Translations under genes and position numbers: made by a program
In this document: positions 7,635 to 39,400 of the stretch, in pieces
Layout of the letters: each line of letters opens with the position of its first letter
Position numbering within the stretch: the first letter of the stretch is position 1
Notes under the pieces: model-generated
What the model was told of the DNA's origin: nothing
The model's database searches: none
Seen by the model: only the letters and a program-made list of their open reading frames with translations
Source of the DNA: Chamaesiphon sp.
Lineage (GTDB): Bacteria; Cyanobacteriota; Cyanobacteriia; Cyanobacteriales; Chamaesiphonaceae
Length of the DNA stretch: 64,000 nt
Assembly (NCBI GenBank): GCA_965246715.1
Contig: CBDFFH010000002.1
Span: 272,172 to 336,171, forward strand
Direction: 5' to 3'

Positions 7635-7965
7635 GAATATTAACCTAAGTTGACAAAAAGCCGACTATATTTTTTTATAAAAAGCGAACAATTCTTTCCA
7701 TATGAGATCGATAAAATCTCTCGTTGTTGTAACTTCATGTTCGACAATCCGCACTGGAACAGATCCGACTGCTCCATCAAGCAACAGATCCCAAGATCGC
7801 TACTTTACGGATTTGCATGATGAAATTTTGGGTGCTGACAAACTAAACAGCCTGCAAACTGCCATCATTGTATCTCGATCGCGTACGCACTGACTCTCTA
7901 GGTCGAGTTCGGTTGGGAGGATCGAGAGTTGGCTACTTTAAGTTCGCTGTCGACTAGCCACGATC

Positions 7966-8550
7966 TCAAGGATTAATCGATCGCATCGTCCATTCTGCTG
8001 CTGATAATTCATAGATATAGCGATTTTGCGGCTCTCCCCGTAGTTCCAAATGGTCTACAGCCGTAGGCGCTAAAAGTAATAAGCAAAAATTAGCTAGCGG
8101 CTGCTGCGAATCGGGCGGGGGTGGATTAAAAGCAGCTGGTTCTTGGCTTCTATCCGCCCCAGGGGTCGCCCAAGCAAACTGAATGCGTCCATTGTCAGAC
8201 AGTTGCTGCCATGCCTGTTGACGAGCCTTAGAGTAGTTAATGATGGGACATTCCACAGTCACGAGGATGAGGGTACCGCTAACTCTAAACTGTTCCCGCG
8301 TCGTGGGAAAATACCAACAAACTTCGGCCCAATCGGACGCGCCAGACAATAAATTTATGGCTTTTTGCGATCGACTATCCACGACAAATTGAAGGTGGCT
8401 GTCTGGTTCGAGCCAACCGCGAAATACGACACTCCGATTGGTGGGGCGATTGTTAGGATCTACTGTCGCCAATTGCACGTACCGAACGTAAGGTATACTG
8501 CGATTGCGATGTAGGGCGCGGGCGATCGGCGATCGCCAAGGTGGGAGCAT
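7966..8550 (-). CDS. FMN-binding pyridoxamine 5'-phosphate oxidase-like flavoprotein
   Basis: QLATV...PTNRSVVFRG, DSRSQK, EVCWYFPTTREQFR, VDHLELRGEPQNR. Confidence 0.85.
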   Translation of the reverse strand: MLPPWRSPIARALHRNRSIPYVRYVQLATVDPNNRPTNRSVVFRGWLEPDSHLQFVVDSRSQKAINLLSGASDWAEVCWYFPTTREQFRVSGTLILVTVECPIINYSKARQQAWQQLSDNGRIQFAWATPGADRSQEPAAFNPPPPDSQQPLANFCLLLLAPTAVDHLELRGEPQNRYIYELSAAEWTMRSINP

Positions 8551-8808
8551 AAAATTTAAAATTGGTGGGGGAGTAATTTAGTTATGAGATCGGAATTAGA
8601 AAAATTAACATTCCGCAGTCCCTAGCTACTAGCGACGACTAGCCGAAAACTAGTCGATCGACTACACATTTATTTTAATCGAAGTTACAGCATTAGAGGG
8701 CGATCGAATCGCTGAAAGTAACGTATATCTTCAATTTTGGCAACATTGATTATCTCGGTTCGATGCCGTATATTACTTATTCTGTTCAGAAATTAGCATA
8801 GCTCACTC

Positions 8809-19498: not shown

Positions 19499-20275
19499 AT
19501 GGCAGGTTCCCCACGTAGCTTGGCCAAGCAAACTACTGTATTTTGTGACTTTGATGGGCCAGTGGTAGATGTATCTGACCGATATTACCGTACCTACCAG
19601 ATGGCATTGGCCGATACCGATCGATTTTACCGCGAGTTCTCGCCACAGTTGCGCGTAGAGCAACAACTCCCATCGCCAGTGTTGAGTAAAGACCAATTTT
19701 GGCAGATGAAACAAAATCGCATCCCCGATCGCGATATTGCTAGCAAGTCAGGATTGACCGATGAAACGATCGATTTTTTTATGGCGCGAGTCGTCAAAAT
19801 TGTCAATCGTCCAGAATTGCTGCAACTAGATAAGCTCCAACCTGGAGTCACTTGGGCGCTAAATTTCCTGAAAACCAATGGTGTTAAGCTGATCTTGGTG
19901 ACGTTGCGCGATCGATTGGAAGCTACGAGTATTTTAGAGCAACATGGGCTTAGGAACCTGTTTACAGGTATCTACGGTACCGATGATAGTGGGGTCGCTT
20001 ACCAGAACTACGCTGAAATCAAAACCGAATTACTCGATCGAGCGATGCGGGAGCATTTACCAGCTACCGCAAATCCCCAGGACAGTTGGATGGTCGGCGA
20101 TACCGAAGCTGATATCCTCGCGGGTAGAACGATGGGAATTCCGACGATTGGTTTGACTTGTGGGATTAGGAGCCATCGCCAACTTAGCGAGCTGCAACCA
20201 ACATCGATCGAACCCGATCTCCTCTCTGCCGCACATCGAGTGATGGGAATGAGTTGTCTGCAAGTGTGTGGCTAG
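19499..20275 (+). CDS. HAD-superfamily hydrolase
   Basis: CDFDGP motif I, WMVGDTEADI motif IV. Confidence 0.9.
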   Translation: MAGSPRSLAKQTTVFCDFDGPVVDVSDRYYRTYQMALADTDRFYREFSPQLRVEQQLPSPVLSKDQFWQMKQNRIPDRDIASKSGLTDETIDFFMARVVKIVNRPELLQLDKLQPGVTWALNFLKTNGVKLILVTLRDRLEATSILEQHGLRNLFTGIYGTDDSGVAYQNYAEIKTELLDRAMREHLPATANPQDSWMVGDTEADILAGRTMGIPTIGLTCGIRSHRQLSELQPTSIEPDLLSAAHRVMGMSCLQVCG

Positions 20276-20380
20276 CTAGCGATTGAAATCGCTGCTGAAT
20301 TTAACCCGCATCGGTGGGTTTCGATCGTCTAGGTGCGGTTTTAACCGTTAGCGACGATTAGCGCCTCAGCAACTTAGCGG

Positions 20381-20454
20381 TTGCACCTCGATCGGTCAAT
20401 TTGTTACCGTTTTAGCTCATCCAGAGCGGTGAAATCAAGCGATCGAGGTAGCAA
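20381..20454 (+). ncRNA. Candidate retron ncRNA hairpin directly upstream of the RT
   Basis: TTGCACCTCGATCG / CGATCGAGGTAGCAA outer stem and TTACCGTTTT / AGAGCGGTGA inner stem. Confidence 0.4.
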
Positions 20455-20458
20455 AAGT

Positions 20459-21520
20459 ATGACAAATAGGCTCGACAGCTCGTACTCAGATAGTGGAGAT
20501 CCTTCTAAGCTGCAACTGCGCGGCTTGCCATTTTGTAATAACGGGGCAGAAATAGCCATCGAAATGGGGATAAGCCTGGGCAAGTTGCAATTTTTGACGT
20601 TAAAAAATCCCGCTTTACCAAACACCCATTATTCTCACTTCTCCATTCTCAAAAATAATGGCGAAACCCGAATTATTTCTGCACCCATTCCTAGTCTCAA
20701 AGATGCTCAGACTTGGATTCTGCGGCGAGTTTTAGATAAGCTCGAAGTTCATGATGCCGCACATGGATTTTATCGCCAGCGATCGATCGTCACCAATGCC
20801 CAACCGCATGTCGGTAAAGATATAATCGTCAAAATCGACCTTCAAGATTTCTTTGGCTCGATCGATTATCGCCGTGTCAAATCGGTATTTACAGCTATCG
20901 GTTATAACGAAACTGTGGCAGATATTTTTAGCTTATTATGTACGGCACGAGTAGTTAGAAACATCGAACGAGACGGAGAAATTATATTCAGTAACAACCG
21001 CAAACGTTGCTTACCTCAAGGCGCAGCTACCAGCCCAGCTTTATCAAATATCTTTTGTCATTCACTAGATCGCGACTTAACTCAAATTGCCCAGGCGCTG
21101 AAATTCACGTATACTCGCTACGCTGACGATCTGACCTTTTCTGGAGATCGAATTGCTGCTACCAAAGTCGATCGATTAGTCGATCGGCTGCACGCGATAA
21201 TCGATCGAGAGGGATTTAAAATCAATCCCGATAAAACCCAAATTCTCGGTCGAGGACAACAGCAGCAAGTAACAGGAATCGTTGTCAATCAAAAATTAAA
21301 CATCTCCAAACGGAAACTTGATACTTTTCGGGCTACTTTATATCAAATAGAGCGCGATGGATTGGCTGGTAAAAAATGGGGTAATTCGCCAGATGTATTC
21401 GCGGCAATTACTGGATATGCTAACTATATAGCGATGGTAAATCCAAGTAGAGGGAAAGAATTACTGATGTCGATCGATCTCATCAAACAGAAATATCAGA
21501 TTGAATCCCCAAAATATTAG
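20459..21520 (+). CDS. Retron-type reverse transcriptase (Mx65/Mx162-like)
   Basis: AHGF...SIVTNAQPH (region X NAxxH), IDLQDFF, LPQGAATSP, YTRYADDLTFSG, QQVTGIVVN (region Y VTG). Confidence 0.9.
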   Translation: MTNRLDSSYSDSGDPSKLQLRGLPFCNNGAEIAIEMGISLGKLQFLTLKNPALPNTHYSHFSILKNNGETRIISAPIPSLKDAQTWILRRVLDKLEVHDAAHGFYRQRSIVTNAQPHVGKDIIVKIDLQDFFGSIDYRRVKSVFTAIGYNETVADIFSLLCTARVVRNIERDGEIIFSNNRKRCLPQGAATSPALSNIFCHSLDRDLTQIAQALKFTYTRYADDLTFSGDRIAATKVDRLVDRLHAIIDREGFKINPDKTQILGRGQQQQVTGIVVNQKLNISKRKLDTFRATLYQIERDGLAGKKWGNSPDVFAAITGYANYIAMVNPSRGKELLMSIDLIKQKYQIESPKY

Positions 21521-21533
21521 AAATATCGGTAAT

Positions 21534-22763
21534 CTCACATCTTGCACCAGAATATAAGTACTAGATTTAGATCGAGACTAATTCCAAGGCAAGACCCTGC
21601 GAGAGCAGAAAGTCTCGCTTCCGATCGATTTCTACTAAAAGTAAACTCACTGCGATCTGTGGCATTAACTGTTGAAGTGCCAGCTCAGATTCCTGTCTCC
21701 ACTCAGGCGGAAGGCTTACGTTTGAGGATAAATAGACCCAGTGGGTGAGTACAAAACTAATAAAGCTCAGAAGCAGCCAACGGTATACACCTAAAAGTGT
21801 TTGTTGACCGAAGCTAGCCAGCCCAAATCGATATTTAGCAGTCTTGAAAAATCCTTCAATTGCCCATCGACGACTGCCCCACCAAGCAATCGTACTGCCT
21901 TTAAGAGCGCGGGTCGAAATCACAAATCTTTTCTCCAACTTACCATCCCGTTTTAAGTAGAACCAGGAAGCCGTAACCACGCCCTCTAAACCTGATAGCT
22001 TAACTTGTTGACCCTTCTTGCCTAGCATCTTCATCTGTCTCCCATCTGCCAGTTTCCGGTTATTCGGTATACCAACAATTGCTTGATGACGAAGTTTTTT
22101 GACCCCGTTGAGGAATTCGACACTACTAAATCCAGTATCGGCTAATACTTGGACTCGAAAGCGGTAAGTGAGTTTCTTGGGCAAGGTGCGGAGCAATTTT
22201 AGCCCCAATTGAGCAGGAGTAGTTGTGCCTTTACCACGCCAGGAACGGAACGCCCAAGGTATTCTCCACTGTCCAACGACTAAGTACAGTACAACCAAAT
22301 GCAGTCCTCGCTTACCGTTGAGAATATGTATCAACGTTGCAAATGCTTTGAATTTCCCCCTTTTCTCCAATGTAGTCAGATCGATAATTACCTGCAAGTA
22401 AGGTCTTTGTCCTTTGGCTGTGTAATTACTCAACTGTTTCAAAATATGTTGGCGAGTCGTACGAATCACGGCTCTGGTTGGCCACCCATATTCATTGAAA
22501 AATCTGCTCAAAGCCGCAGGTGATTTAATCACCCCATGTTCTGGTAACATTTGACCATTCTTAGGTTCCATAAATAGAGCGAAACTAGCTTGGAGACTAA
22601 GTTTCTGATAGGGACTGGGCATCAGCTCTAACAACGTGTAGAGTATTAATTGGGCGTACGGGAGAATGGTATTCACTGTTCTCATCAATGTTTTTACACG
22701 CCCTTTTTCTCATATTTTGACTCCTGCGAAAATCAGTTGTTATGTACTGGTGCAAGATGTGAG
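21534..22763 (-). mobile_element. IS701-like insertion sequence
   Basis: 17-bp TIRs CTCACATCTTGCACCAG / CTGGTGCAAGATGTGAG; 4-bp TSD TAAT (21530-33, 22764-67). Confidence 0.88.
21567..22688 (-). CDS. DDE transposase (IS701/IS4-like)
   Basis: IIDLTTLEK, LADTGF, RWAIEGFFKTAK. Confidence 0.88.
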   Translation of the reverse strand: MMRTVNTILPYAQLILYTLLELMPSPYQKLSLQASFALFMEPKNGQMLPEHGVIKSPAALSRFFNEYGWPTRAVIRTTRQHILKQLSNYTAKGQRPYLQVIIDLTTLEKRGKFKAFATLIHILNGKRGLHLVVLYLVVGQWRIPWAFRSWRGKGTTTPAQLGLKLLRTLPKKLTYRFRVQVLADTGFSSVEFLNGVKKLRHQAIVGIPNNRKLADGRQMKMLGKKGQQVKLSGLEGVVTASWFYLKRDGKLEKRFVISTRALKGSTIAWWGSRRWAIEGFFKTAKYRFGLASFGQQTLLGVYRWLLLSFISFVLTHWVYLSSNVSLPPEWRQESELALQQLMPQIAVSLLLVEIDRKRDFLLSQGLALELVSI

Positions 22764-22962
22764 TAATTCTACGATTGTCATCATTTCTACTTGTGTTAAA
22801 TTTTAAGTGGAATAGTCACAAAATATCGAAACTATAGTTTGGGTTCTAACCACCCAACTGGTGCGCCAACTTTTAGAGTGAGCGTATGCCGTTTTTGTGT
22901 TTTTGCTATTTCGACGTTTGATTGGCTCGATCGTAAAACAATCGATGTCTACCTCAAACACC

Positions 22963-23033
22963 CAAAAGTTAGCTCATTTGGTAGAGCAATCGGCTGAGCC
23001 GACTGGTAACAGGTTCGATTCCTGTACTTTTTA
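22963..23033 (+). pseudogene. tRNA-like element with collapsed anticodon loop
   Basis: D arm GCTC/GAGC, T arm ACAGG-TTCGATT-CCTGT, acceptor AAAAGT/ACTTTT, anticodon arm TCGGC-TGA-GCCGA. Confidence 0.7.
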
Positions 23034-23038
23034 ACAAA

Positions 23039-23112
23039 TGCTAGGTAGAGCGGTTGGTTAGCTCGTTGGGTTGATAATCCAAAGGTCGCTGGTTCAAATC
23101 CAGCCTCAGCAA
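23039..23112 (+). tRNA. Atypical tRNA (anticodon GAT, Ile) on an fMet-like body
   Basis: Full cloverleaf: D arm GAGC/GCTC, TTGGG-TTGATAA-TCCAA, GCTGG-TTCAAAT-CCAGC; A:C mismatch in the acceptor stem. Confidence 0.65.
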
Positions 23113-23121
23113 AAAAACCTC

Positions 23122-23154
23122 GCTCTGGGTAAGAGCACCTTGTTTCGGACAAGG
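23122..23154 (+). pseudogene. tRNA fragment (D arm plus anticodon arm, TCG)
   Basis: GCTC-TGGGTAA-GAGC-A-CCTTG-TTTCGGA-CAAGG; no T arm visible. Confidence 0.5.
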
Positions 23155-23304
23155 CAAACCGTAATGGTTGCAAATTTACAGCACTTTGATGATGCTGTAT
23201 ATAAATGTTCTGAAAAAACATTTTCCAATCTGCTAGAGGACTGAAAAGTCATCTAGATTTCCCGATACTTAGTTGTATCGATCTTTTCTGCCCGTTATTA
23301 CTTT

Positions 23305-23432
23305 GTCATGCAGGTGTTTATATATGACTTAGGAGCCAGTGCAGGAGAAGTTTAGCTAACTTGAGTATTTCCCTTCTTGCTGTCAGCGCTAGCGTGCTCC
23401 GGCAAGGCTAGCAACGTCAATAGGAACGGCGT
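23305..23432 (+). ncRNA. Candidate structured ncRNA or leader upstream of the slipin gene
   Basis: Nested stems plus a potential pseudoknot in a GC-richer island within AT-rich DNA. Confidence 0.45.
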
Positions 23433-24025
23433 ATGTGATGGTTATCGGCTATTTTAGCGATAGCTATGGAGCGATGGCAAAATAAGTAATAATCAGCTTA
23501 ATCCAGCTAGTTAAAATCTGTTGTCCGCGCCTAAGTTGTTAAACTCTGCTGTGGCGAAGTAAAAAATATCTATGTTTTTATTTAATCTAGTCAATCAGCT
23601 AAAATCGCCGAAATTATCGTTTAATTTTTATATGTGGCAGACATTTTATATCAAAGCTAACGAAATTGGTGCGCTGTCTCGTCGTGGCAATTTCCAACAG
23701 TTTTTACGTCCTGGAAAATACACTTATTTTGGGCGAGATTGGCAAGTCAAAGCATTTGATTTAAATGAACCAGAAGCACAGATTGACAACTTAGAGCTAT
23801 TGTTGAGCGAGCGCAGAGCCGAATTAGAAGAGTATCTAACGATTATTAAGACTGACTTCGATCGGGTGGCTTTAGTTAGAGTAGGCCAACAATGGATGAG
23901 CGTGGCACCTGGTCGATCGATGGCATTTTGGCGGGGATTTATCCCAGTAGAGGTTCATATTTTTAATTTACAAGATAGTCTCGAATTACCTGCCGAATTT
24001 GCACGACAGATCCGAGGCACGATTT

Positions 24026-25531
24026 CAGGTTAAACGCATCAAAACTTGATATGAGGCGATCGAATTCAATAATACATACAACTTAAGCAGTATTTATGAA
24101 CTAAATACATTTACGACGAATTCAATTAGAACTGATGTATAGTATAAGGCAATATTTATTTAATGCAATATAAAGTAGTCGATCGAAGGAATAACTTAAA
24201 TCGTCGATATATTATAGAAGTAATTTGATTTCAACCAATAGTTCGTAAATTATAAAATACCTTCTAAAATTTCAGCCAAGTATTTGTCATCTATACCTGC
24301 TAGAAATCTCTTGCTTTTCACACTTAATTTCCGACTTTTATTTTGACTAATTAAGTTAATAGCTATGTGCCGTAATACTGCAAAATTAGCTGGCGCATTA
24401 TCTTTCCTAATTCGACTATAATCTTCTCTTAAAGAAACATCAAGTACCCAATGAAGTGAATTTTCTATCCCCCAATGACCTCTAATTGCTCCGGCGACTC
24501 TCTTGGCATTATTAGCTAAACTACTAATAAAATAACGAGTCTCTACGGTGGTTTTATCCCCAATAGTTCTTACTGATTCAACCATCGCAATACTAGTCAA
24601 TTTCATCCAGTTATGGGATGAATCTATTCGATCGGCAACATCTGATATCATTAAATAATTACGGATTTCTTCCCTACCCCCATTAATCTCCTTAGTCCTG
24701 AAATCACTCAGATTGAAACCTGCGCCACCAGTTGCAATAGCCTGTTTAAATAGCCTTTCTACTTGGTCGTATAAACTTGGTTGATTCTTTTTCACAGCAA
24801 TTACATAATCTGCATCTTTTTCAACAATTTTTTTTACTATTTCTCTTTGACATCCCATTGCATCAATGGTAACTATACATCCGGCTAAATCTAGAACTTT
24901 AATTAATTCAGGAAGTGCTGTGATTTCATTAGATTTGCCCTCAACCATTTTCTGTCCTAATACTAATCTATTAGTTACAGCCCATGCACTAACAGTATTT
25001 AGTACACCTTGTCCATTAGTATTATCTCCTGAATTTCGAGATTGTTTGCCGTCAAGTGCAATTATTTCTCCTGCTGTTATTTTAGATATTCCTTTAACCC
25101 AACTCAGGAAACTTTTTTGAAATTCTTCAGGATTAATTCGTGAAAATACCCTTCCAAATGTATCATGTGATGGAATACCATGCGGCAACTCTAAAAATTT
25201 ACCTAGCCATTCCTTCTTCGCCAAACCATAAATTTCTATATCTATCCATGTATCAGCTCCAGATACTACAGCACAAATGGTAATGGTGATGATATCAATT
25301 AATTTATGCTTTTTCCCGCGCTCTGTCCTGTAGTCTTCTACACTCTCGAAGTGTTCTATAATACTATATTTTGGCTTCAGCTTCATTTTAGTTAAATTAA
25401 ATTTGTTAAATTCTAACATAGTTAATTAGCTCTAACTATTACCTAGCAGTAATTACAAGATTTCTAGATGCTATTTATTCATTCGATCGTCAAAGTTTTT
25501 AGTAATAACAAATTTAAGTGCGTTTAACCTG
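24026..25531 (-). mobile_element. ISAs1-family IS (copy 1)
   Basis: TIRs CAGGTTAAACGCA / TGCGTTTAACCTG; 10-bp TSD GGCACGATTT. Confidence 0.93.
24250..25386 (-). CDS. ISAs1-family transposase
   Basis: PSHDTF, ALDGK, KSNEITA, TIDAMGCQ, HWGIENSLHWVLDV. Confidence 0.95.
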   Translation of the reverse strand: MKLKPKYSIIEHFESVEDYRTERGKKHKLIDIITITICAVVSGADTWIDIEIYGLAKKEWLGKFLELPHGIPSHDTFGRVFSRINPEEFQKSFLSWVKGISKITAGEIIALDGKQSRNSGDNTNGQGVLNTVSAWAVTNRLVLGQKMVEGKSNEITALPELIKVLDLAGCIVTIDAMGCQREIVKKIVEKDADYVIAVKKNQPSLYDQVERLFKQAIATGGAGFNLSDFRTKEINGGREEIRNYLMISDVADRIDSSHNWMKLTSIAMVESVRTIGDKTTVETRYFISSLANNAKRVAGAIRGHWGIENSLHWVLDVSLREDYSRIRKDNAPANFAVLRHIAINLISQNKSRKLSVKSKRFLAGIDDKYLAEILEGIL

Positions 25532-25558
25532 GGCACGATTTCTGGATTAAAAAAATTC

Positions 25559-26994
25559 GGCTCTTCACTACTTAGTATGCTCGATCGATAGCAAATGTGG
25601 CAAATAGAAATTAATCAATATGTGAAATTGCCATAAAAGTGGAGTGATAATTGACATTGGGGGCATTTTGTTATTAAGTATAATCTAATTGAAAGCGATC
25701 TTGAGACAAACCAGAAGAAAATGCTCACCAAAAAGGAAATACAACTACTAACAGAAGTACTAAATCTAGCGGGAGTAAAAGTAAATGCCAAGCACCAACA
25801 TGAAGGAATTGGAATAATTTTAGGAGTTGAGTCGAGCGAAAAAATAAGTGTTTGCCAACGCTGTGGTTTGAAAAGCGACAAGTTACACCAAAACCATCGG
25901 CAAATAATCAAAGATTTGGATTGGGGAGGGCAAGCGGTATTTTTAGAAATAAATAGAAGACAATTCAACTGCGAAAAATGCCAGAAACCATTTAGCGAAG
26001 AATTAGAATTTGTCAAGTCAAGAAGAAGATACACGAAAAGATTAGCAGATCGGATAATAGAAGAAGTATTAGCAGATGACATTAGGAGTGTAGCGAAGAA
26101 GGGGAAGGTAACAGAGAAAGAAATAGAAAGAATGCTAAAGGATGCATCAGGAGATTTATCAAAAATAAAACCAATAGGATTAAAAAGATTAGGGATAGAC
26201 GAAATAGCATTGATTAAAGGGCAGGGAAAATATTGTGCAGTATTAATAGACATAGATCGTTCTAAATTATTGGCAATTATCGAGGGAAGAACCAAAGAAG
26301 AAATTAAGAAAGTCCTGAGAGAGTGGGGGTCAGAGGTATTAGAAGGAATCGAAGAAGTAAGCATAGACTTATGGCAGGGATATAAAAGTCTAGCAATAGA
26401 AATGATGCCAAAAGCTCAGATAGTAGCAGATCGATTCCATATAATGGTACAAATAAATCAAGAATTAGATGGAGAAAGAAAGAAGGAGAAGCGAAAAATC
26501 GAAGCAGAAATAAAGCAAGCAAAAACCCCAGAAGAAAAAGCGGAGAAAGCGGCTATATTAGCAGGAATAACTAATAGTAAGTATCCAATATTGAAAAACG
26601 AAGAAGACTTAAATGAAGAACAGAAAGACAAGCTAGCTCAGGTAAAAAATGTATCAAGTCAGCTCGGAAAAATGCATCAATTGAAAGAGGATTTTCGAGA
26701 AATATTTGAGAAAAAGGAAAACTGGAATGAGGGATTACTAGGCTTAGGGGAATGGCTGTCAAAAGCTCAAAAATATTTTGTCAAAAGTCAAGGGACAATT
26801 TATCGATGGTTTGATGAAATACTGGCTTATTTTGACAATGGAACAACTAGTGGAGTAGTGGAGGGAATTAATAACAAGCTAAAACTAATCAAACGTTCAG
26901 CATATGGATTTACTAATTTTGAGAATTTCCGAAATAGATGCTTGCTTAATTGGCACTTCAATCATTAATTTGGCATACTAACTAGTGAAGAGCC
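25559..26994 (+). mobile_element. ISL3-family IS
   Basis: TIRs GGCTCTTCACTA.TTAGTATGC / GCATACTAACTAGTGAAGAGCC; 8-bp TSD AAAAATTC. Confidence 0.93.
25721..26968 (+). CDS. ISL3-family transposase
   Basis: CQRC...CEKC zinc finger, GIDE, SIDL, ADRFH, EGINNKLKLIKR. Confidence 0.95.
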   Translation: MLTKKEIQLLTEVLNLAGVKVNAKHQHEGIGIILGVESSEKISVCQRCGLKSDKLHQNHRQIIKDLDWGGQAVFLEINRRQFNCEKCQKPFSEELEFVKSRRRYTKRLADRIIEEVLADDIRSVAKKGKVTEKEIERMLKDASGDLSKIKPIGLKRLGIDEIALIKGQGKYCAVLIDIDRSKLLAIIEGRTKEEIKKVLREWGSEVLEGIEEVSIDLWQGYKSLAIEMMPKAQIVADRFHIMVQINQELDGERKKEKRKIEAEIKQAKTPEEKAEKAAILAGITNSKYPILKNEEDLNEEQKDKLAQVKNVSSQLGKMHQLKEDFREIFEKKENWNEGLLGLGEWLSKAQKYFVKSQGTIYRWFDEILAYFDNGTTSGVVEGINNKLKLIKRSAYGFTNFENFRNRCLLNWHFNH

Positions 26995-27842
26995 AAAAAT
27001 TCAAGGTTGCTGAGTGTGAAATTGGAGTATTGTACGTCGAAAATAACTTTGTCAAGCTGTTAGTTGCAGGTGAGTATGATTTTTGGATATTCGATCGCAA
27101 TGTAAATGTCAAAACTCTTAATCAGAGGTCGAATCCAGAAGCTAAAATCGACAACTTAGAATTATTAATCGATACTCATGAGCGCGAACTGCAAGAACAT
27201 GTATTAATTGTCAAAACAGAATTTAACCAGGCTGCACTGATTCGCTCCGATCGCAATTGGTATGGGATGAAACCCAACCAAGTTAATGCTTATTGGCGAC
27301 AATCTCACGATCTAGAGTCCCATCTGTTTAACTTAGAAGATACTCTAGAATTACCTGCTAATTTCGTCCAGAAATTACGAGATGAAAGTATTCCTAATAT
27401 TAAAAAATTTGAAATATCACAATCTCAACTTGGATTGTTGTACATCCAGGATAATTTTATTCGCCCCTTATCCGCCGGGGAATATGCTTTTTGGTCGGTG
27501 AATCGGGACATTAAGGTAATTACTCTCAATCTCCTGATTCCTAATCCAACTTTTCCCCAGGAGGAATTTCTCATCGAACGACACCAGGATTTTGTCAGCG
27601 AATATTGTACTGCGGTGCAATTACTCGCTCACCAAGTTGCGATCGTCCGTCATTTAGGAAAGGTAATTGCTATTTTACCACCTACCAGTCGGAAGTTATT
27701 TTGGCAGGTAGTAGAAGTAGAACTAATCGATATTACTAACGATGCAAAATTACCTGCCAATCTCGTCTCCGAATTTCGAGCTAGTTCGCCAGATGTTTTG
27801 TTACCAAACAGCCAAAGTATTCATACTTGCGAGGTTCCCGCC

Positions 27843-29330
27843 CAGGGTGAACGCACTTAAATTTCCTACTATTTAAAATCCTCGCAAATCAGTTGCAGAT
27901 TTGAATTACGAAAAGTATGAAAGCTTTAATGGTAAACAAGTATAGCCAGTTAATTATGTTATATTTATTGGAAATTCAGATCGCGTCAAATGAAGCTAAA
28001 GCCAAGGCATAGTATCGCAGAACACTTTGGTGACATAAAAGACATTAGAATTGAACGGGGGAAAAAACACAAACTAATCGATATTATCACGATCTCGATT
28101 TGTGCAGTAGTATGTGGAGCAGATGGATGGGAAGACATAGAGCTGTATGGCATCACCAGAAAAAAATGGCTGGAGGAATTTCTAGAATTACCGAATGGGA
28201 TACCATCTCACGATACATTTGCACGGGTATTTTCACAAATTAATCCTGAAGAATTCAATAAATCTTTCCTGCATTGGATTAAAGGAATAAGTAAAATAAC
28301 AGCAGGAGAGATAATCGCATTTGATGGAAAACAATCTCGAAATTCAAGAGACGAAAAAAATGGTAAAGGAGTAATTAATACGGTCAGTGCTTGGGCAGCA
28401 AGTAATAGATTAGTATTAGGACAAACAAAAGTCGAGAGTAAATCAAATGAAATTACTGCATTGCCTGAGTTGATTAATGCCTTAGATCTAGCTGGATGTA
28501 TAGTGACAATTGATGCAATGGGATGTCAGCGAGAAATAGTCAAGAAAATTGTCAAAAAAGAAGCAGATTATGTAATTGCTGTCAAAAAGAATCAACCAAG
28601 TTTATATGAAAGGGTAGAACAGCTATTCAAACAGGCGATTAAAACTCGTGGTGAAAGTCTGAAAACGCATAGCTTCAGCAGTAGAGAGATGAATAGAGGT
28701 AGAGAGGAAACTCGTAATTACCTAATGATATCAGACATTGCAACATCAATAGATCCATTGCTAAAATGGCAAAATCTGACTAGTATTTGCATGGTAGAAT
28801 CAGTTCGAGTTGTCAATGAAAAAACCAGCGTAGAAGCTCGTTATTTCATCAGTAGCTTAGAAGATAATGTTGAAAAACTAGCAGAAGCAATCAGAGGTCA
28901 TTGGTCGATAGAAAATTCACTCCATTGGGTACTTGATGTTATTTTCAAAGAAGACATTAGTCGAATTAGAAAAGATAATGCTCCAGCTAATTTTGCTGTT
29001 TTAAGACATATAGCAGTTAATATAATGAGTCAGAACAAGAGTCGAAAACTAAGTGTTAGGAAGAAGCGATTTCTTGCGAGCCTTGATGAAGAATATTCGC
29101 GCGAACTTCTAGAGGCTATTTTAGCCTAAATTTAACTAACCCCAGAGTATGAATTTGGCTAAATATCTTTAGCCGCACTTTTGCCGGACTAAATTGAGTT
29201 AATTTAACCTCGTCTTTGGTTTCGATTTTATTGATATTGTCGTAATTGTAGTTAAGCAATCGAATATCATTAATCGCCTATTTTAGTGGCTCTCGATCGA
29301 AATAAATCCTGTTTTGATGCGTTCACCCTG
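27843..29330 (+). mobile_element. ISAs1-family IS (copy 2)
   Basis: TIRs CAGGGTGAACGCA / TGCGTTCACCCTG; 10-bp TSD GGTTCCCGCC. Confidence 0.93.
27990..29129 (+). CDS. ISAs1-family transposase
   Basis: PSHDTF, AFDGK, KSNEITA, TIDAMGCQ, HWSIENSLHW. Confidence 0.95.
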   Translation: MKLKPRHSIAEHFGDIKDIRIERGKKHKLIDIITISICAVVCGADGWEDIELYGITRKKWLEEFLELPNGIPSHDTFARVFSQINPEEFNKSFLHWIKGISKITAGEIIAFDGKQSRNSRDEKNGKGVINTVSAWAASNRLVLGQTKVESKSNEITALPELINALDLAGCIVTIDAMGCQREIVKKIVKKEADYVIAVKKNQPSLYERVEQLFKQAIKTRGESLKTHSFSSREMNRGREETRNYLMISDIATSIDPLLKWQNLTSICMVESVRVVNEKTSVEARYFISSLEDNVEKLAEAIRGHWSIENSLHWVLDVIFKEDISRIRKDNAPANFAVLRHIAVNIMSQNKSRKLSVRKKRFLASLDEEYSRELLEAILA

Positions 29331-30115
29331 GGTTCCCGCCCAACACGTCGGGTTGGTGTATATCGATCGCATATTCCACTCTCAACTCGAACCAGGGATT
29401 CATTCTTGGTGGCTGTTTGGGCGTTCTTTTCAAAGCGAAATATTCGATCTGCGCTTACAAAACCTGGAGGTTTCGGGACAGGATATTTTATCAAAAGATA
29501 AAGTACCGCTGCGGCTAAATTTAACGGCTGGCTTCCGCATTCAAGATGTACTCAGAGCCAAAAGTGGTTTGTCAGACATATCGAACTTTTTATATAAAGA
29601 ACTCCAGTTTGCACTGCGTGCAGCCGTAGGCGAACAAACTTTAGATGCATTACTGGAAAATAAAGGCGCGATCGATCGTTCGATTGCCGATTATATTCGT
29701 ACCAAAACTGCTGAATATGGGATCGAGATCGATTCTGTTGGCGTAAAAGATATCATCTTACCTGGCGAGATTAGAACTATCTTGAGTAAGGTAGTAGAAG
29801 CGGAAAAATCAGCTCAAGCTAATGTCATCAGACGCAGGGAAGAGACGGCAGCAACTCGCAGTATGTTAAATACAGCAAAAGTAATGGAAGATAATCCGGT
29901 AGCTTTACGATTGAAAGAGTTGGAAATCTTAGAAAGAATTGCCGAGAAAGTCGATCGCATTCAGGTCAATGGTGGTTTAGATAATATTCTCAGTGACTTA
30001 ATTAAAATCGACCGCCAACAAAATTCATAATATTGCAAGTTAGTCCAAATGTTGCAATCTACATCAAGGATTGCAACACAACCAATAGACTAACGATCGA
30101 TTCAATTAAAGGCTA

Positions 30116-31846: not shown

Positions 31847-33337
31847 CAGGGTGAACGCACTTAAATTCTCTATTATTAAAAATACTTGAAAACCAGATGT
31901 AAATTTGATTTGTCAAAGAAGTGAAATCTATACCTGTTAATAACTTTGGCTGATTAATTATGTTAAATTAGTTTAGAACTAATATGATTCCAAATGAAGC
32001 TGAAGCCTAAGCATAGTATAGCAGAACACTTTAACGACATAGAAGACATTAGAATTGAACGTGGAAAAAAACATAAATTAATAGATATTATCACGATCTC
32101 CATTTGTGCTGTAGTATGTGGAGCGGATGGATGGATAGATATAGAAATGTATGGTATTGCCAGAAAAAAATGGTTAGAAAAATTCCTAGAACTTCCGAAT
32201 GGAATACCATCTCATGATACATTTGCCAGGGTATTTTCACAAATCAACCCTGATCGATTCAACAAATCTTTTCTGAGTTGGGTTAAAGGAATATCTAAAA
32301 TTACAGCAGGAGAGATAATTGCATTTGATGGAAAACAATCTCGAAACTCAGGAGATGAAAAGAATGATCGAGGTGTAATTAATACAGTCAGTGCTTGGGC
32401 TGAAAGTAATAGATTAGTGCTAGGTCAAAAGAAAGTAGAAGGGAAATCTAATGAAATCACAGCACTTCCAGAACTGATAAAAGTTTTAGATTTAGCAGGA
32501 TGTATCGTTACGATTGATGCAATGGGATGTCAAAGGGAGATTGTCAAAAATATTGTCGAGAAAGATGCTGATTATGTAATTGCAGTAAAAAAGAATCAAC
32601 CAACTTTGTATGAACAAATAAAGAAGTTATTCAAACAAGCAATTGAAACTCACGGAAAAGACCTTAACATGAGTAGCTTCAACAGTAGCGAGATGAATAG
32701 AGGTAGAGAAGAAATTCGTAATTACGTAATGCTAACAGATGTTGCAAAATGGATAGATCCATCGGGGAAATGGGAGAACTTAACTAGTATTGGGATGGTA
32801 GAATCAGTTCGAGTTGTGAATGGAAAGACTAGTGTGGAAACTCGTTATTTTATTAGTACTTTGAATAACGATGCCCAGAAATTAGCAAGAGCAATTAGAG
32901 GCCATTGGTCAGTAGAAAATTCTCTTCATTGGTTGCTTGATGTTGCTTTTAAAGAAGATAATAGTCGAATCAGAAAGGATAATGCTCCAGCTAACTTTGC
33001 CGTTTTAAGGCATATCGCTATTAACATAATTGGTCAGAATAAGAGTCGAAAATTAAGCGTTAGAAGCAAGAGGTTTTTAGCAACACTCGATCGAGAATAT
33101 TCAAATGAGCTTTTGGAAGCTATTCTGTAAATCACTTTCACTGAACAATCAATCTCAATTTGATTAAAGATATTTAATCAATCTTTGCGCTGCACTAAAT
33201 TGGATTAATCCGATCTCTTATTTGATTTTGGTTTCAGTTGATATTGTATTAACTGCAACTAGCTAATACATACTATAAAATTAGCCGTTCTATTTTTCAT
33301 CGATCGAAGCATACCCCATTTTGGTGCGTTCACCCTG
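31847..33337 (+). mobile_element. ISAs1-family IS (copy 3)
   Basis: TIRs CAGGGTGAACGCAC / GTGCGTTCACCCTG; 10-bp TSD GTGCTTGAAC. Confidence 0.93.
31994..33130 (+). CDS. ISAs1-family transposase
   Basis: PSHDTF, KSNEITA, TIDAMGCQ, HWSVENSLHW. Confidence 0.95.
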   Translation: MKLKPKHSIAEHFNDIEDIRIERGKKHKLIDIITISICAVVCGADGWIDIEMYGIARKKWLEKFLELPNGIPSHDTFARVFSQINPDRFNKSFLSWVKGISKITAGEIIAFDGKQSRNSGDEKNDRGVINTVSAWAESNRLVLGQKKVEGKSNEITALPELIKVLDLAGCIVTIDAMGCQREIVKNIVEKDADYVIAVKKNQPTLYEQIKKLFKQAIETHGKDLNMSSFNSSEMNRGREEIRNYVMLTDVAKWIDPSGKWENLTSIGMVESVRVVNGKTSVETRYFISTLNNDAQKLARAIRGHWSVENSLHWLLDVAFKEDNSRIRKDNAPANFAVLRHIAINIIGQNKSRKLSVRSKRFLATLDREYSNELLEAIL

Positions 33338-33483: not shown

Positions 33484-36400
33484 TTAAGCTTTAAGGTTTA
33501 ATTGCAGAACGAAATCGTTAAAGTCTCGATCTCCACCACCAAAGAAATCCTCAAATGCATACTGCTTAGTGCCGTTAGCCAAGATACTAGATTGGACGTG
33601 TACGACTTTACTACCATCAGAATTAGTGTCAGGATTGGCATCGACAAAGTTGAAATAGGCATGTGGCTTATTACCAGCAGCGTTAGTGGGATTATTATTG
33701 ATGAAGTCAGTAATATTCCCCTCCGCAACCAGATAAGGTGCGAGTAATTGACCGCTAGCGAGTTGATAGCTGCCAATGCTCTCCGTTTTGGCAATAGTTA
33801 CGACCGCGCGTTTTAGTGCCGCCGTAGCATAACCAAGATCGCTCGGCTTATAGGCTTTCCCGCTTGCACTGTCGGTTACAGTCCCATTAGCATCATCGAT
33901 CGTGTAGAAACCACCGTAATTAAAGTAGGCAGCATCGGCGGATACTTTAGAATCGATCGCGACCATACCAGTTTTCTCGCGGAGGTCGAGGTATTTTTCG
34001 GGATTGGTGAGAGCGGGAGCTACTGTAAATTTCGCACTCAAGCTATTCGTCCCCGCGTTACCCGCAGGATCGACGATATTGGCTCCATCGACTGTCAGCT
34101 CGTAACTACCCAGAGCGGTAGTTAGTACGGCGAGTCCGTTAATCTGATATTTGGTATCGGATTGCTTGACGACAGTAACCGCACTGGTGATGAGGTTCGC
34201 ACCGCCATCTTTTTTGAGCGAGATATCGTTGAAGTCGAAGGTACCAGCTTTGAGGGCTTCGGAGAATTCTACCACTACACCATCGATTGGTTTGGCGATC
34301 GAAATCCCTGGGAGATTGCTGAAAGCTTTCACTGCTGGCGGTACCGTATCCGTCGCCGCACTTTTAGCGTTGACTTCAAACTGACTGACGATCGCGGGAG
34401 TTTGGTTGGCGTATTTCGTCGGATCGGCTTCGATTTGGGCGCGGCTGTAAGCAGGTACCCCGTAAGTCGTCACGGTTAATTTCTGAGTGGTTTTGTCGAT
34501 ATTAAACTCAGTCCAGCCGTAGGTATTAGTCGCAACGTAATCGCCTTTGAGCAGTTTGGCATCGATTAAGCCATTGGCTTGCGTGAGGTTATTATCCAAA
34601 CCAACCGGATCGTAGCCTAGCGGAGCTAAGCCACCGTTGACAATGCCTTTGATAAAGGCATCTTTACCCGCATCGGGTAGTCCATCGTATTGAGCTTTCT
34701 GCACGGGAGTCAGCAGTCCGACTGCAGAGGCTAATTCAGCGACGGTCGGCCCGAATGGTTTGTCATAGGCAATCGCACCCGTGATGATTTCAAACGCGCT
34801 AGTGGCGATTTGGGGGCCACCTGGAGCGGTTTGATAAGTGAGGTTGTTGACTAGGGTACCGTGGAAATCAGCGGCGACGAAGACGACGTTGTTAATTTTG
34901 TTGTCATTGATAAACTTGAGAATCTCCGTCCGCTCGGCAGCGTATCCTTCAAAGCGATCTTCGGCAGCGAGAATCCCGATATTTTCGATCGGTTCGGGCA
35001 CCATGATAAACTTCCACGTCACGCCGTTATTTTTGGCGTTGAGCAGGTCATTTTTCAGATCCTGAACTTGTTGCCGTCCCAGCATCGTCCGGCTGGTGTC
35101 GAAGGATTTAGCCAGGAATGCCCCGACTTGAGCGGTATCGCTGGTGTTGGTGACGGGTGCGAGTTCGGTATCGCGGAAAGAACGCGCGTCGAGGACGAAG
35201 GTAGCGGCATCGCTACCGAAGGTGTTGTAACGGTAAATCTTGCGTTCGCCATTGGTGCGCGAATCGCTGGGTGTGTTGTAGACTTTATCCTGGATCGGAT
35301 TGTACTCTTGGAACGCCTGTAAGCCGTTCTCGAACAACGCACTGTCGTTGATGAGCGCGTTGGGGTTGTCATTTGGGAATGCAGCTAAGAACCGATTCGC
35401 ACCCTTCGCGCCACCGTTGTCACTACCGATGGGCGCACCCCCTGCAAAGTCATTGGTAACTTCATGATCGTCATAGGTTGCGAAGATCGAAGTCGAGGCG
35501 CGGAGATCGGCAAAGCTATTTTTACCGAAGCGGGAGCCGTAGACTTCCGCATGTTTGATGCGGTAATCATCGAGGGTTGTGGCTTGCTGTTTTTCCGTAC
35601 CGTCGGCATTGAGCAATGCTGGCGTGGCAACATCTCCATAAATCGTATCGCCATGTTCGACAAAGAACTTGAGATTTGCCGTTGGAACGTTACTAATCGC
35701 CGAATAAGGAGCCAATTCGCCGCGCCAGTCGCCAGATACACCAAACTTAAGTCCGGTGAAGGTATTGAGCGGAGCCGCAGTACTGAATTTACCCACCAAG
35801 CTAGAACCGAGGGAATCGATCGCGCGGTAGTAATATTCGGTATTGGGATTTAAGCCAGTAACTTCGACTTTGACGGGTTGGAGCGAGTTGGTGGCTTGAA
35901 CGGTTTTAGTCCCAGCGATCGTCGCAAAGTCCGCACTAGTCGAGTATTCAAACGTCACATCGCCCAAGTTCGCCGCCCGCGTCCACAGGACGGTAGAGTT
36001 TTGAGTGGTATCGCCAGAGGCTACTCCGTTGGGGAATGCCGCAGCGGTATCGAGACTCAGGGCGATAATTTGCGTGAACTGGGGTTGGTTGGTGGTGTTA
36101 GCAACTGCATCCGTGCTGCCAGTTTTATTGAAGTTATCATCGGCAACTAACACGATCGTGGGTTTGCCATTAACCGTCGGGCCAAAGGTAATCCCCTCGA
36201 TGTTATCCAAGCCAGTGGGCAGTTTCAGGTCGTTGAGGTTCAGGAGCAACTGTTTTTGAACTGGCTTAATCTTCCCAAGGTCGGCACTAGAGAGTGCATT
36301 TAAGCTATCGATACCGCTGATATCCGTCGCACTACCGACGCTAATTTGGTAAATCTTGATGACGTTACCAGTTTCGGGAGTCAGCGGGGTATTTGCTGCC

Positions 36401-39400
36401 ACCGATGAGAACGACCGCTCGATCGCCAGCATGTTACCGTTATTATCTAACGCTGTCAGGGCAACGAGTCCGGCAGTGGCAAAGTTATTGGTACCTGTCG
36501 TACTGACCGAAGGTGCAACTGCGGTCGGGTCGAGATTGTAGAGGTATTCAGCGGCGGCTTTGTTAGTATCGAGGTTGAATTTAATCAATCGCGATCGACC
36601 GACACCTGTAGGATTCTTCGGATCGGTACCAGGGAAGCTCGTCCGTTGACCGTCCTGTGCTAGCGCGTTCTCGCCACCAGTCAATAAGGTCTTCTGGTCG
36701 GGAGTAACGGCGATGCTTTCAAACGCGAGGTTGTCGTAGACACCGCGAGTTTGGGACGCAGCCAAGTTAGAATCGGGCTGGAATTTTGCTGGAACTGGCA
36801 AGGAGCGGAGTAACTTCCCGTCTGTGAGGTTGAATTCATTGACGAAGGGGAAGGTGCGAATCTGCCCTGGCGCGTCTCCCTGCCCCTCAGAGGATATAAA
36901 AACGGTTCCGGCTTTAGTCAAACCGATATCTTCGGTATCGGTGCCTTGAGGGAGATATTGGCTGCCATCGGCTTTCCGCAGATATGTGACACCTGTGAAG
37001 GCAACCTTGCTATTGTCTAACTTGCCAGCAGATAAGTCGATATTCAGTTTGTAGAAGCGAGTGGGTTGACCGGGTTCGTTGGCGTTGCTCTTGCGATCGT
37101 CCGAGATACTATAGAAGCTATTCGTCTTAGCATCGTAAGTAATCCCCGACAGACCGCCGACGGTAGTATCGACACCTGCGGCATCCTTGACCGTGACGGA
37201 TTGAGCGGGATAGGTCGCTTGTCCGAGCAGCGTGAGTTTCGGTAGTGCGGGTTTGGTGGCGAAAATGTCTAGCGCCTTACCCTCGACGGTATTGGCTGGT
37301 TTGACACCCAGGAGTTTATCGATCGTCGGAGCGATGTCGATGTTATTGACCTGACCCAGATCCTTATTCGCGATATCGGGGCCAGCCGCGAGGAAGATCG
37401 CCTGCATCGCTGGCGATGTCGGGTCATAACCGTGGGCACCGTAGAAGTTGGGTACCGACAGGACGGGAGTGGTGCTAGTCGTATCGCCTTTGCGGATGAC
37501 TGGCGTACTTTGCGTACCGTCGAAGTTATAACCCTCTTTGAGTAAGGCGAATACGTCTCCTGTATCTTCACCGATGAAGTTGCCCCGCGCATTGATGATG
37601 TCATTGGCAGTTGGGTTGGCTGGAACTACGCGGTTATAGACCTTATCGAAGATCTTGGTGCTAGTGGTGCCCCCCGCTTGGTAGTTGGGGTTGGCATCGG
37701 CATAACCATTTAAGATGTCGATGACCTGTTTCTGCAACGCTGCATAATCTTTAGGATCGACGGTACCGTTGGGTTCGCGACCTTTGACGTTGATGTAGAT
37801 ATTCGTCGCGGGACCGCTAGTGACGGCGCGTACTTTAGTCGCGTCTATACCAGCACTCGTAAGCAGATTATTCAAACTCACCGCCGTGTGGAAGGGTGCG
37901 AACCCGTGGTCGGAGGTGACGATGATGTTACTGTTGGGCTTGCCGTTGGCATCGACACCGACAGTATCGATGATTTTTTGGACGGCGGCATCGGCAGCTT
38001 TGTAAGCGGCTTCGATGTAGCTCTTGTACCGTGCGACTTTAGCGGCATCTTGACCTGCGCCGATCGAGTTGGGATTGGTAAAGTCGCTAGCTTGGCGGGG
38101 GTCGGTTAGCAAGAATTGGTGTTCGGAACCGTCGGGTTGCTCGATGTAGGTCATTACCAAGTCAGCATTGGGGTTTTGCTGGATGGAACGGACGGCAACT
38201 TTGGTTTGATACTCTACAAATGACTTGACCTGGTCTGCATACAGTGCTTCCAATTCGACATCGCTAAAGTTGGTAAGTCCGGTATTGAGCCGTTCGGGGA
38301 AGCGGAAGTCTGCTTGAGGTGCCCAGTTACCGATACTGGTATTGATGTCGTCAACATTGGCGATAACCCCAGGACTCTCGGCAGGACGGGGGATATAGTA
38401 AGCCGAGTAGCGAGCCAGATTGACTTTAGATAAATCTGCTGCCAGGGTCGCACCAAAGAACGCTGTCCCTACCTTATTATTACTACCGTCGAAGAAGAAT
38501 GAACTGGATTTTTGGTCGCTGACTTTGATAAATGCCGAGCCAGTTGAGGGCAACGTCGCAGCCCCTTTAATCCCGACATTGGCATCGAACACGACTAATG
38601 TGTCGTAGTTAACCTTGCTATCATCAGTGGTATCGATCGCGGCTACTTGAAGGTTGTAAGCAGGATTACCGCCCGTCAAGGCTGTAGCTGTCAGCGATTC
38701 TAAATTAGCAACCTTGATATCACCATAGAATTTTTTACCCAGCGCAGTCAACCCAGTCACAGCTTGAGTTTTATCAACTATAAAGTCCACCGCAGTCAAG
38801 CTAAAGCCGCGACCGCCGGAACCGCCAGTAAAGAATGGCCCGCCAAAAGCTCCAAAGGGTACGGTATAATCGACCGTGCGATCGGCTGCCTTATCTAAAA
38901 CGATCGGGCTGCCATTCGAGGTTTTGACAGCAGCAGTGATATTTACCCCGTCCGCACCAGGAAAGGTAGCCGAAACGACAGTTTTACCCGCTTTTTCGAG
39001 GTTCAACCAGATCGGGTTAGCAGTTGGAGTGTTGCTTTCCGATGGGTCGATGCCTGATTGATAAGTATAACCACCGATCGGTGCGGCAAAACCGCTGGTA
39101 TTAGTGGTAAATGGGTTGGCGACGATGTGGAAACTATTTGAATTGATGTCGTTGTTTACCGCACTAGAACCAGTGGCGATCGCGATGTGCGAGGGTGCGG
39201 TCAAAGATGGTGTAATCGTCTGGTTGCCAGCAGCAATTACCCCTTTGCTAGCCAATAATCCCAACCCTTTGGTGGGGTCGAGTACGCCATTTTTCAGGTA
39301 TTCCTTGAGGATCGTATTCGTCGCCCCATCGAGGGAGATCAAGACCGTCTTCGGTTTGCCAGCCGCTACGGTAGAAATCGGTGTAGTTAAAGCTGGCAGA

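Follow-up and report, generated by a model that had tools for sequence, protein, structure and literature searches.

The window analyzed here, a 64,000-nucleotide stretch of the genome of Chamaesiphon sp. (assembly GCA_965246715.1, contig CBDFFH010000002.1, positions 272,172 to 336,171), harbors a locus in which a short reverse transcriptase (RT) of the retron type is followed by a leader of tRNA-like units, a pseudoknot, and a structured RNA of ~290 nt, and by a gene for an SPFH (slipin) protein. The original prediction, made from the letters of this DNA, held that four insertion sequences (IS) hide a compact, co-oriented locus. Other copies of each element in the Chamaesiphon genome (6.1 Mb), from which the IS ends and duplications were fixed, bear this out. 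The IS-free locus comprises 3,958 bp with all parts in one orientation, and the RT stop codon lies 208 bp from the first tRNA-like unit. In window coordinates, the features are:

20270-20458, + strand: hairpin-rich spacer 5′ of the RT gene, with a long hairpin at 20381-20454 (fold z −4.65; unconserved)
20459-21520, +: short type XIII-derived retron RT, 353 aa, intact, with NAxxH, YADD, and VTG
21534-22763, −: IS701-like element with a TAAT duplication, between the RT gene and the leader promoter
22775-22802, +: sigma70-like promoter with an extended −10, a consensus match only, at a position conserved in homologous leaders
22834-22891, +: conserved 5′ double hairpin of the leader (4/15 pairs change on both sides, 25 sequences)
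22916-22959, +: decayed remnant of the first tRNA-like unit, from alignment with intact homologues
22963-23033, +: tRNA-like unit with a 5-nt anticodon loop (Rfam, 48.5 bits)
23039-23112, +: tRNA-like unit with GAT in the loop, a homologue of the relatives' optional third unit (Rfam, 58.3 bits)
23117-23136, +: H-type pseudoknot, 20 nt, directly 3′ of the last tRNA-like unit (second stem covaries)
23298-23562, +: structured RNA, ~290 nt in the family, here ~265 nt and divergent (no Rfam family)
23572-24025, +: SPFH gene, piece 1, with its start at 23572 or 23632
24026-25531, −: ISAs1-type element, 10-bp duplication
25542-25558, +: SPFH gene, piece 2, 17 bp between two IS
25559-26994, +: ISL3 element, 8-bp duplication
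27003-27842, +: SPFH gene, piece 3, repeat units 2 and 3
27843-29330, +: ISAs1-type element, 10-bp duplication
29341-30030, +: SPFH gene, piece 4, Band_7 domain and coiled coil

Three of the IS leave the SPFH gene dead in this genome, and the fourth separates the RT from the leader, sparing the leader promoter and the RT frame. Once the IS are removed, the SPFH frame is open, with a length of 646 aa if it starts at ATG 23632 and 666 aa if it starts at ATG 23572. The predicted 646-aa SPFH protein with N-terminal repeats has a natural counterpart of 666 aa, P0147, which is 95.7% identical to the reconstructed frame over 646 aa with no gaps, and six more natural proteins of 643–675 aa are 76–86% identical to it. 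A second RT, P0001, is 99% identical to that of the window; for P0147 and P0001 alike, the longest contig on record measures 11,845 bp, which makes it probable that the complete locus survives uninterrupted in another allele. The window copy is a broken example, and its value lies in the family to which it belongs.

A short type XIII reverse transcriptase without retron partners

The RT is indeed of the retron type, with RT_XIII as its best PADLOC model (471 bits versus 310 for the next model). Judging by its homologues, translation most likely begins at ATG 20459. The match spans positions 98–430 of the 469 in the RT_XIII profile, compared to 4–430 for long forms, and the ~120-aa N-terminal extension is missing. 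A protein homologue search returned a set of relatives of 338–368 aa, so the window RT is no lone truncation; a truncated pseudogene is ruled out because the whole clade shares the short length. In a tree of 126 rows, the short RTs form two fully supported subclades nested among the long type XIII RTs of Nostocales. In a tree of 48 rows, they fall together on one side of a branch that is not starred, with a Shimodaira–Hasegawa-like approximate likelihood ratio (SH-aLRT) of 91, and the subclades reach 100. Eleven loci without the N-terminal extension and without the leader are excluded from the short count, as trees and lengths place them elsewhere; nine are RTs of 396–626 aa that form their own clade, and two are disrupted copies of the long type.

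Despite identities of just 50–60% across lineages, the short RT frames are open. They keep the catalytic motif (YADD, with YVDD in one subclade and YGDD once), and the RNA-binding thumb motif is unchanged. The ratio of nonsynonymous to synonymous substitution rates (dN/dS) is 0.15–0.39 in 15 of 16 measurable pairs and 0.57 in a near-identical pair, indicative of purifying selection; two pairs involving the window RT are saturated. A plasmid search returned one distant RT only, and a metagenome scan yielded RTs that are nearly all long or non-cyanobacterial, with one informative locus (L072).

The short RT lacks the msr-msd RNA that defines retrons as well as the SWIM partner. An msr-msd model built from seven long-RT loci matches 42 of 89 long loci in the DNA examined versus 0 of 24 short loci, and it has no match in the Chamaesiphon genome. 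A Nostocaceae msr-msd query, for which the positive control worked, found no full copy in nine of nine short-RT genomes. Provision of msr-msd in trans was rejected, as the only two partial matches (46–49 nt) adjoin other RTs. The SWIM_XIII query likewise returned no partner in five of five genomes (Chamaesiphon and four short-RT genomes; control positive), with WGR/ARM not searched separately. The hairpin upstream of the RT, which the original prediction counted as part of the locus, does fold well, but neither it nor its neighboring hairpins match the msr-msd model or the leader models, and they are not present 5′ of three same-layout relatives, where the DNA is unrelated. It is ruled out as msr-msd and as a conserved part of the locus.

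The leader is present at 24 of the 24 short-RT loci with DNA, downstream of the RT in 22 and upstream in 19, and at one of 89 full-length type XIII loci (L072). Downstream copies are missing from G763, where the contig ends, and from G757, where the RT is truncated, and the downstream copy of G812 is partial. A downstream leader with none upstream of the RT occurs in the window, G436, G943, and G914. The SPFH gene follows the leader within ~5 kb in 16 of the 24 loci; of the other eight, three have other cargo with SPFH elsewhere, and the remaining five are incomplete or damaged. SPFH is not linked to the RT-leader unit in G777, G670, and G750. Three of the 24 loci came to light only once the pattern had been established, and each conforms to it; the same late search found the leader at 0 of 18 long loci, some of these being repeats. 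An RT and a slipin with consecutive accessions (MBW4622914/5) may duplicate one of the 24 and are uncounted. The order of RT, tRNA-like units, noncoding RNA, and slipin, the recurrence of which had been proposed as a check, is thus found in several cyanobacterial lineages.

The module itself is far more widespread than the RT. In one draw of 301 Nostocaceae genomes, SPFH occurs in 141, about half, and the short RT in 15, 14 of them together with SPFH; 127 of the 141 SPFH-bearing genomes are without the short RT. In the genus Chamaesiphon, 16 of 24 genomes have SPFH, preceded by tRNA-like pairs. Since the leader and SPFH usually occur without the RT and the short RT never without the leader, the RT depends on the module and not the reverse. 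Distance correlations with the RT (0.92 for the downstream RNA, 0.57 for the upstream RNA, and 0.80 for SPFH) are unused as evidence, as the pairs are non-independent and the sets differ.

Four loci have unusual layouts. In L072 (6057-6174), a long RT without msr-msd is followed by a mini-leader, in which the 5′ part is fused to the RNA 3′ end, a full leader, and YdeI, possibly an intermediate state. In L222 (G670; 6655 onward), the RT start recurs 3′ of the downstream leader, which points to a tandem duplication. In L268 (G914; oriented 5820-9553), two tandem leaders lie after the RT, the second interrupted by a 558-aa open reading frame (ORF) whose start appears to resemble a group II intron protein. 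In G639, a leader on the opposite strand lies 1.6 kb away from a long RT.

Leader RNA and SPFH protein

The leader spans ~750 nt and comprises, from 5′ to 3′, an extended −10 promoter, a double hairpin, one to three tRNA-like units, an H-type pseudoknot, and the ~290-nt RNA. Three or four tRNA-like units had been predicted for the window, which holds two intact units and one decayed remnant; a fourth was not found at this locus. The pseudoknot-capable RNA of the original prediction corresponds to the 20-nt pseudoknot, and the main structured RNA is the separate ~290-nt element. The second stem of the pseudoknot covaries across loci (TGTC/GACA, GCCC/GGGC, and GTCC/GGAC, with GCTC/GAGC in the window). 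The ~290-nt RNA folds into a long irregular closing stem that encloses a multi-branch core. In 30 sequences, 26 of its 50 pairs change on both sides, with 0 of 500 shuffles as high, although the structure was derived from the same alignment used for this covariation test, which favours it. Pairing is 94% versus 32–39% in slid controls. No Rfam family matches this RNA in the window or in six loci. A sequence-only RNA model, with just 11 candidates scored per genome, found three in 151 genomes of the class, far below the SPFH frequency, and is not taken to show the range of the RNA.

The tRNA-like units are full cloverleaves, each pairing with itself, which rules out a YrlA-type permuted fold across both units. 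YrlA scores are 17.9–26.9 bits (17.9 in the window) versus the Rfam cut-off of 69, and the proposed Y-RNA-type mimicry is not supported; the units are more like the predicted b7a-tRNA. Under conserved bodies, the anticodon loops are hypervariable, with 26 different loops in 45 copies of unit 1 and 16 in 46 copies of unit 2; the loop deviates from 7 nt in 26/45 copies of unit 1 and is 7 nt in 44/46 copies of unit 2. Such variability makes decoding less likely, particularly by unit 1.

Upstream and downstream copies of the leader share 78–87% identity and cluster according to lineage. These features, together with the retained promoter, rule out that the flanking leaders arose by retroposition in the manner of long terminal repeats. 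The RT-less loci L038 and L041 carry the upstream-type (A-type) RNA, consistent with RT loss by recombination between leader copies. Additional elements of this kind were noted elsewhere: a T-arm-like element follows the pseudoknot in L007, L008, L013, L014, and L018-L020 and was not recognized in the window copy, and the Chamaesiphon genome has a second cluster at C29:120110-120434 with four tRNA-like calls at a relaxed threshold.

The SPFH protein consists of three ~135-aa units, each of two beta half-repeats, followed by a Band_7 domain and a coiled coil; most relatives have two repeat units. No hydrophobic (membrane) segment was found in it. Its predicted structure, with a mean predicted local distance difference test (pLDDT) score of 80, has a core that matches stomatin (Z 17.7), and a sequence search of solved structures returned only stomatin/HflK-type proteins. 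The major vault protein (MVP), which shares the order of beta repeats, SPFH domain, and coiled coil, is the sole chain aligned across the repeats (Z 10.6, root-mean-square deviation 13.2, 265 residues). However, a single repeat unit has no significant structural match; its weak rows are SPFH proteins over ~50 residues and MVP (E 0.12), with SPFH1 domains matching better. By analogy with its family, the protein may form a cage; no evidence for a vault-like shell was obtained.

Proposed role of the reverse transcriptase in a Band-7/tRNA-like module

The closest precedent is the set of Band-7, tRNA-like b7a-tRNA, and RtcB RNA-repair systems predicted by Burroughs and Aravind in 2016, as outlined in the available text of bioRxiv 10.1101/312249. 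Common to both are a soluble Band-7 protein that adjoins tRNA-like RNA and a link to stress. The system described here differs in having no adjacent rtcB, an attached RT, 4–6 extra SPFH1-like repeats, arrays of one to three tRNA-like units, a pseudoknot, and the ~290-nt RNA. With type XIII retrons (RT clade 10, Mx162/Ne144, as far as described in the available text of PMC7736814), the short RT shares the RT family, catalytic and thumb motifs, and a nested position in the tree; in contrast to them, it is tied to an unrelated RNA and lacks the N-terminal extension, msr-msd, and SWIM partner. The locus matches neither a complete retron nor a textbook RtcB operon and belongs to neither class. It shares tRNA mimicry beside a ring- or cage-forming scaffold with the Ro60-YrlA Y RNAs, but its units are ordinary cloverleaves that are not circularly permuted and score far under the cut-off, and TROVE is unlinked. 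Among the matches listed, no paper joins a retron RT to SPFH or to the ~290-nt RNA, although supplements could list these RTs; the available main text of PMC13712802 mentions neither SPFH, band 7, nor slipin.

A connection to stress comes from Anabaena PCC 7120, in which loss of TrcR raises alr0739 72-fold and alr0740 (slipin) 42-fold and in which TrcR binds their promoter, according to the available text of PMC10272220. The two genes are YdeI and slipin and move with rtcB and a tRNA L-array, as given in the accessible part of PMC9938897, and the YdeI and RidA/L-PSP families are up-regulated in the trcR mutant (PMC10272220, PMC9938897, as far as available). The Anabaena slipin is of one family with the SPFH protein of the module. 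Locus L039 has the order leader-YdeI-slipin, and RidA/L-PSP stands behind the leader at other loci. From this shared order, a leader is expected at the alr0739-alr0740 operon, although the available portions of PMC10272220, PMC9938897, and PMC8421152 do not mention tRNA-like units, leader RNA, or an RT there. A relaxed 8-bp TrcR-like box of our own design occurs in 16 of 58 leader promoters and 23 of 59 3′ ends, against a background of 0.03 per 85 nt.

We judge it an even call that a short type XIII RT has joined a widespread module of tRNA-like units, ~290-nt RNA, and SPFH, and that it binds and copies the module RNA within a predicted SPFH particle. We read the RT as a recruited accessory of a Band-7/tRNA-like module, and SPFH is unlikely to be a retron effector. 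A single leader transcript may be cut into the tRNA-like RNAs and the ~290-nt RNA, the former serving as decoys or ligation cofactors, not decoders. A soluble SPFH cage would hold these RNAs, the RT, with its thumb unchanged, would take module RNA as primer or template, and the particle would probably act under translation stress. The ribonucleoprotein suggested by the original prediction is plausible. The more specific version, in which the domesticated RT, priming on the ~290-nt RNA or the tRNA-like units, synthesizes a novel type of complementary DNA inside a soluble vault-like SPFH cage, is tentative and on balance doubtful. If true, it would tie reverse transcription to defence against RNA damage or translation stress in cyanobacteria.

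A number of observations weigh against an RT that copies the module RNA under stress control. The ~290-nt RNA is no msr-msd analogue by shape and is without the msd-like perfect stem: the + strand gives the better fold in 48 of 49 copies, and the longest Watson–Crick stem of the RNA is 7–15, mostly ≤11, compared to 15 in six of seven msr-msd. The module occurs without the RT in most genomes. Selection is weaker on short RTs than on long RTs (dN/dS 0.05–0.11, seven pairs), three of 24 short RTs are damaged (G757 truncated, G812 altered at its C-terminus, and G474 with YGDD), and L043 carries a deleted RT remnant. The 24 loci are kin, such that the counts are not independent trials and the linkage could be one inherited accident. 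The 20-nt TrcR direct repeat described in the available text of PMC8421152 is found in 0 of 58 leader promoters, and the window leader copy is without even the relaxed box; hence stress control in the Chamaesiphon genome, where the trcR promoter motif was not found either, is unproven. Nor is rtcB at the locus, the matches lying on contigs C21 and C12 (relatives were not profile-scanned for RtcB), and the TROVE gene is unlinked on contig C43.

The RT could be co-regulated cargo, with the leader only a stress-inducible promoter or 5′ region, as for YdeI and RidA, and with another RNA as its substrate. Various genes stand behind the leader, leaders duplicate at the DNA level together with the promoter, and in 19 of 24 loci a duplicated leader lies 5′ of the RT, whose start codon is often 1–16 nt from the RNA end. 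A promoter role leaves the downstream-only leaders of the window, G436, G943, and G914 unexplained, and no other template was found in the msr-msd searches of this and the short-RT genomes; we regard the cargo explanation as unlikely. That the locus is an anti-phage system of retron-like design, with leader RNA in place of msr-msd and SPFH as the toxic effector, is quite improbable. Such a system would suit the three-part RNA-RT-protein layout, the RNA directly 5′ of the RT in 19 of 24 loci, the patchy distribution (15 of 301 genomes), and the swapping of effectors among retron modules described in the available text of PMC7736814. An RT-guarded toxin would not, however, allow SPFH without the short RT in 127 of 141 genomes; moreover, the RT-leader unit can be unlinked from SPFH, SPFH has no PADLOC match, and the RNA lacks an msd-like stem. 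The original proposal of SPFH and tRNA mimics as a retron effector module is not supported, as leader and SPFH are mostly RT-less and the RT has lost msr-msd.

Relaxed dN/dS, long branches, damaged copies, and RT loss by leader-leader recombination (L038, L041) would be expected of a slowly decaying hitch-hiker, that is, a type XIII retron that landed once beside the leader and lost its partners. Yet dN/dS stays near 0.15–0.23 at dS 0.4–2.5 and frames remain open in the diverged lineages, which makes this account quite improbable as well. That the RT is simply a neighbor, by chance and in this genome only, is exceedingly improbable: it was the first reading of the genus survey, in which the RT-bearing Chamaesiphon genomes (6 of 24) have the long form located elsewhere, and it was overturned by targeted searches across cyanobacteria that gave the leader at 24 of 24 short-RT loci and the consecutive RT and slipin accessions.

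The locus family supplies a natural case of a retron RT that, having lost msr-msd and effector alike, is still under selection beside a different RNA, which bears on the domestication of retrons. The module adds concrete parts to the predicted Band-7/tRNA-like systems, namely tRNA-like units, a pseudoknot, and the uncatalogued ~290-nt RNA. Cultured cyanobacteria hold intact loci with and without the RT, which renders the question directly testable.

Insertions in the window copy and neighboring observations

Full copies in the assembly, including those of the window, number eight for the IS701-like element, 14 for the ISAs1-type element at 24026, six for the ISL3 element, and 19 for the ISAs1-type element at 27843. 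In run X1, one contig spans the first two IS sites of the SPFH gene, joining 24009 to 27003 with 36 letters between; no joint skipping the IS701-like element occurs among the run contigs listed. The small shares in RNA runs X5 and X15 are contigs of relatives and show nothing on expression of the window locus. Given the assembly's 204 repeat intervals, a naive Poisson estimate for four IS in 4 kb is close to 1e-5, but three other places in the genome hold at least four repeats within 10.5 kb. The original prediction had invoked selection against a toxic product. Hits in the SPFH gene after the first would have been neutral, so such selection cannot explain them; only the first would have been selectable, intact alleles are common, and other repeat clusters exist, all of which speaks against this proposal.

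Elsewhere in the genome, a 638-aa rtcB with a ~200-aa insert lies at C21:161439-163352, and a second, split rtcB-like gene at C12:130758-131684. At C43:56800-61676, a cluster of five tRNA genes shares one direction with a 531-aa ORF and a TROVE/Ro60 gene, possibly an L-array with Ro60. Within the window, a further ISAs1-type transposase (31994-33130) is 77% identical to the element at 27843, and a multi-domain ORF of 2,624 aa occupies 33484-41358 on the − strand.

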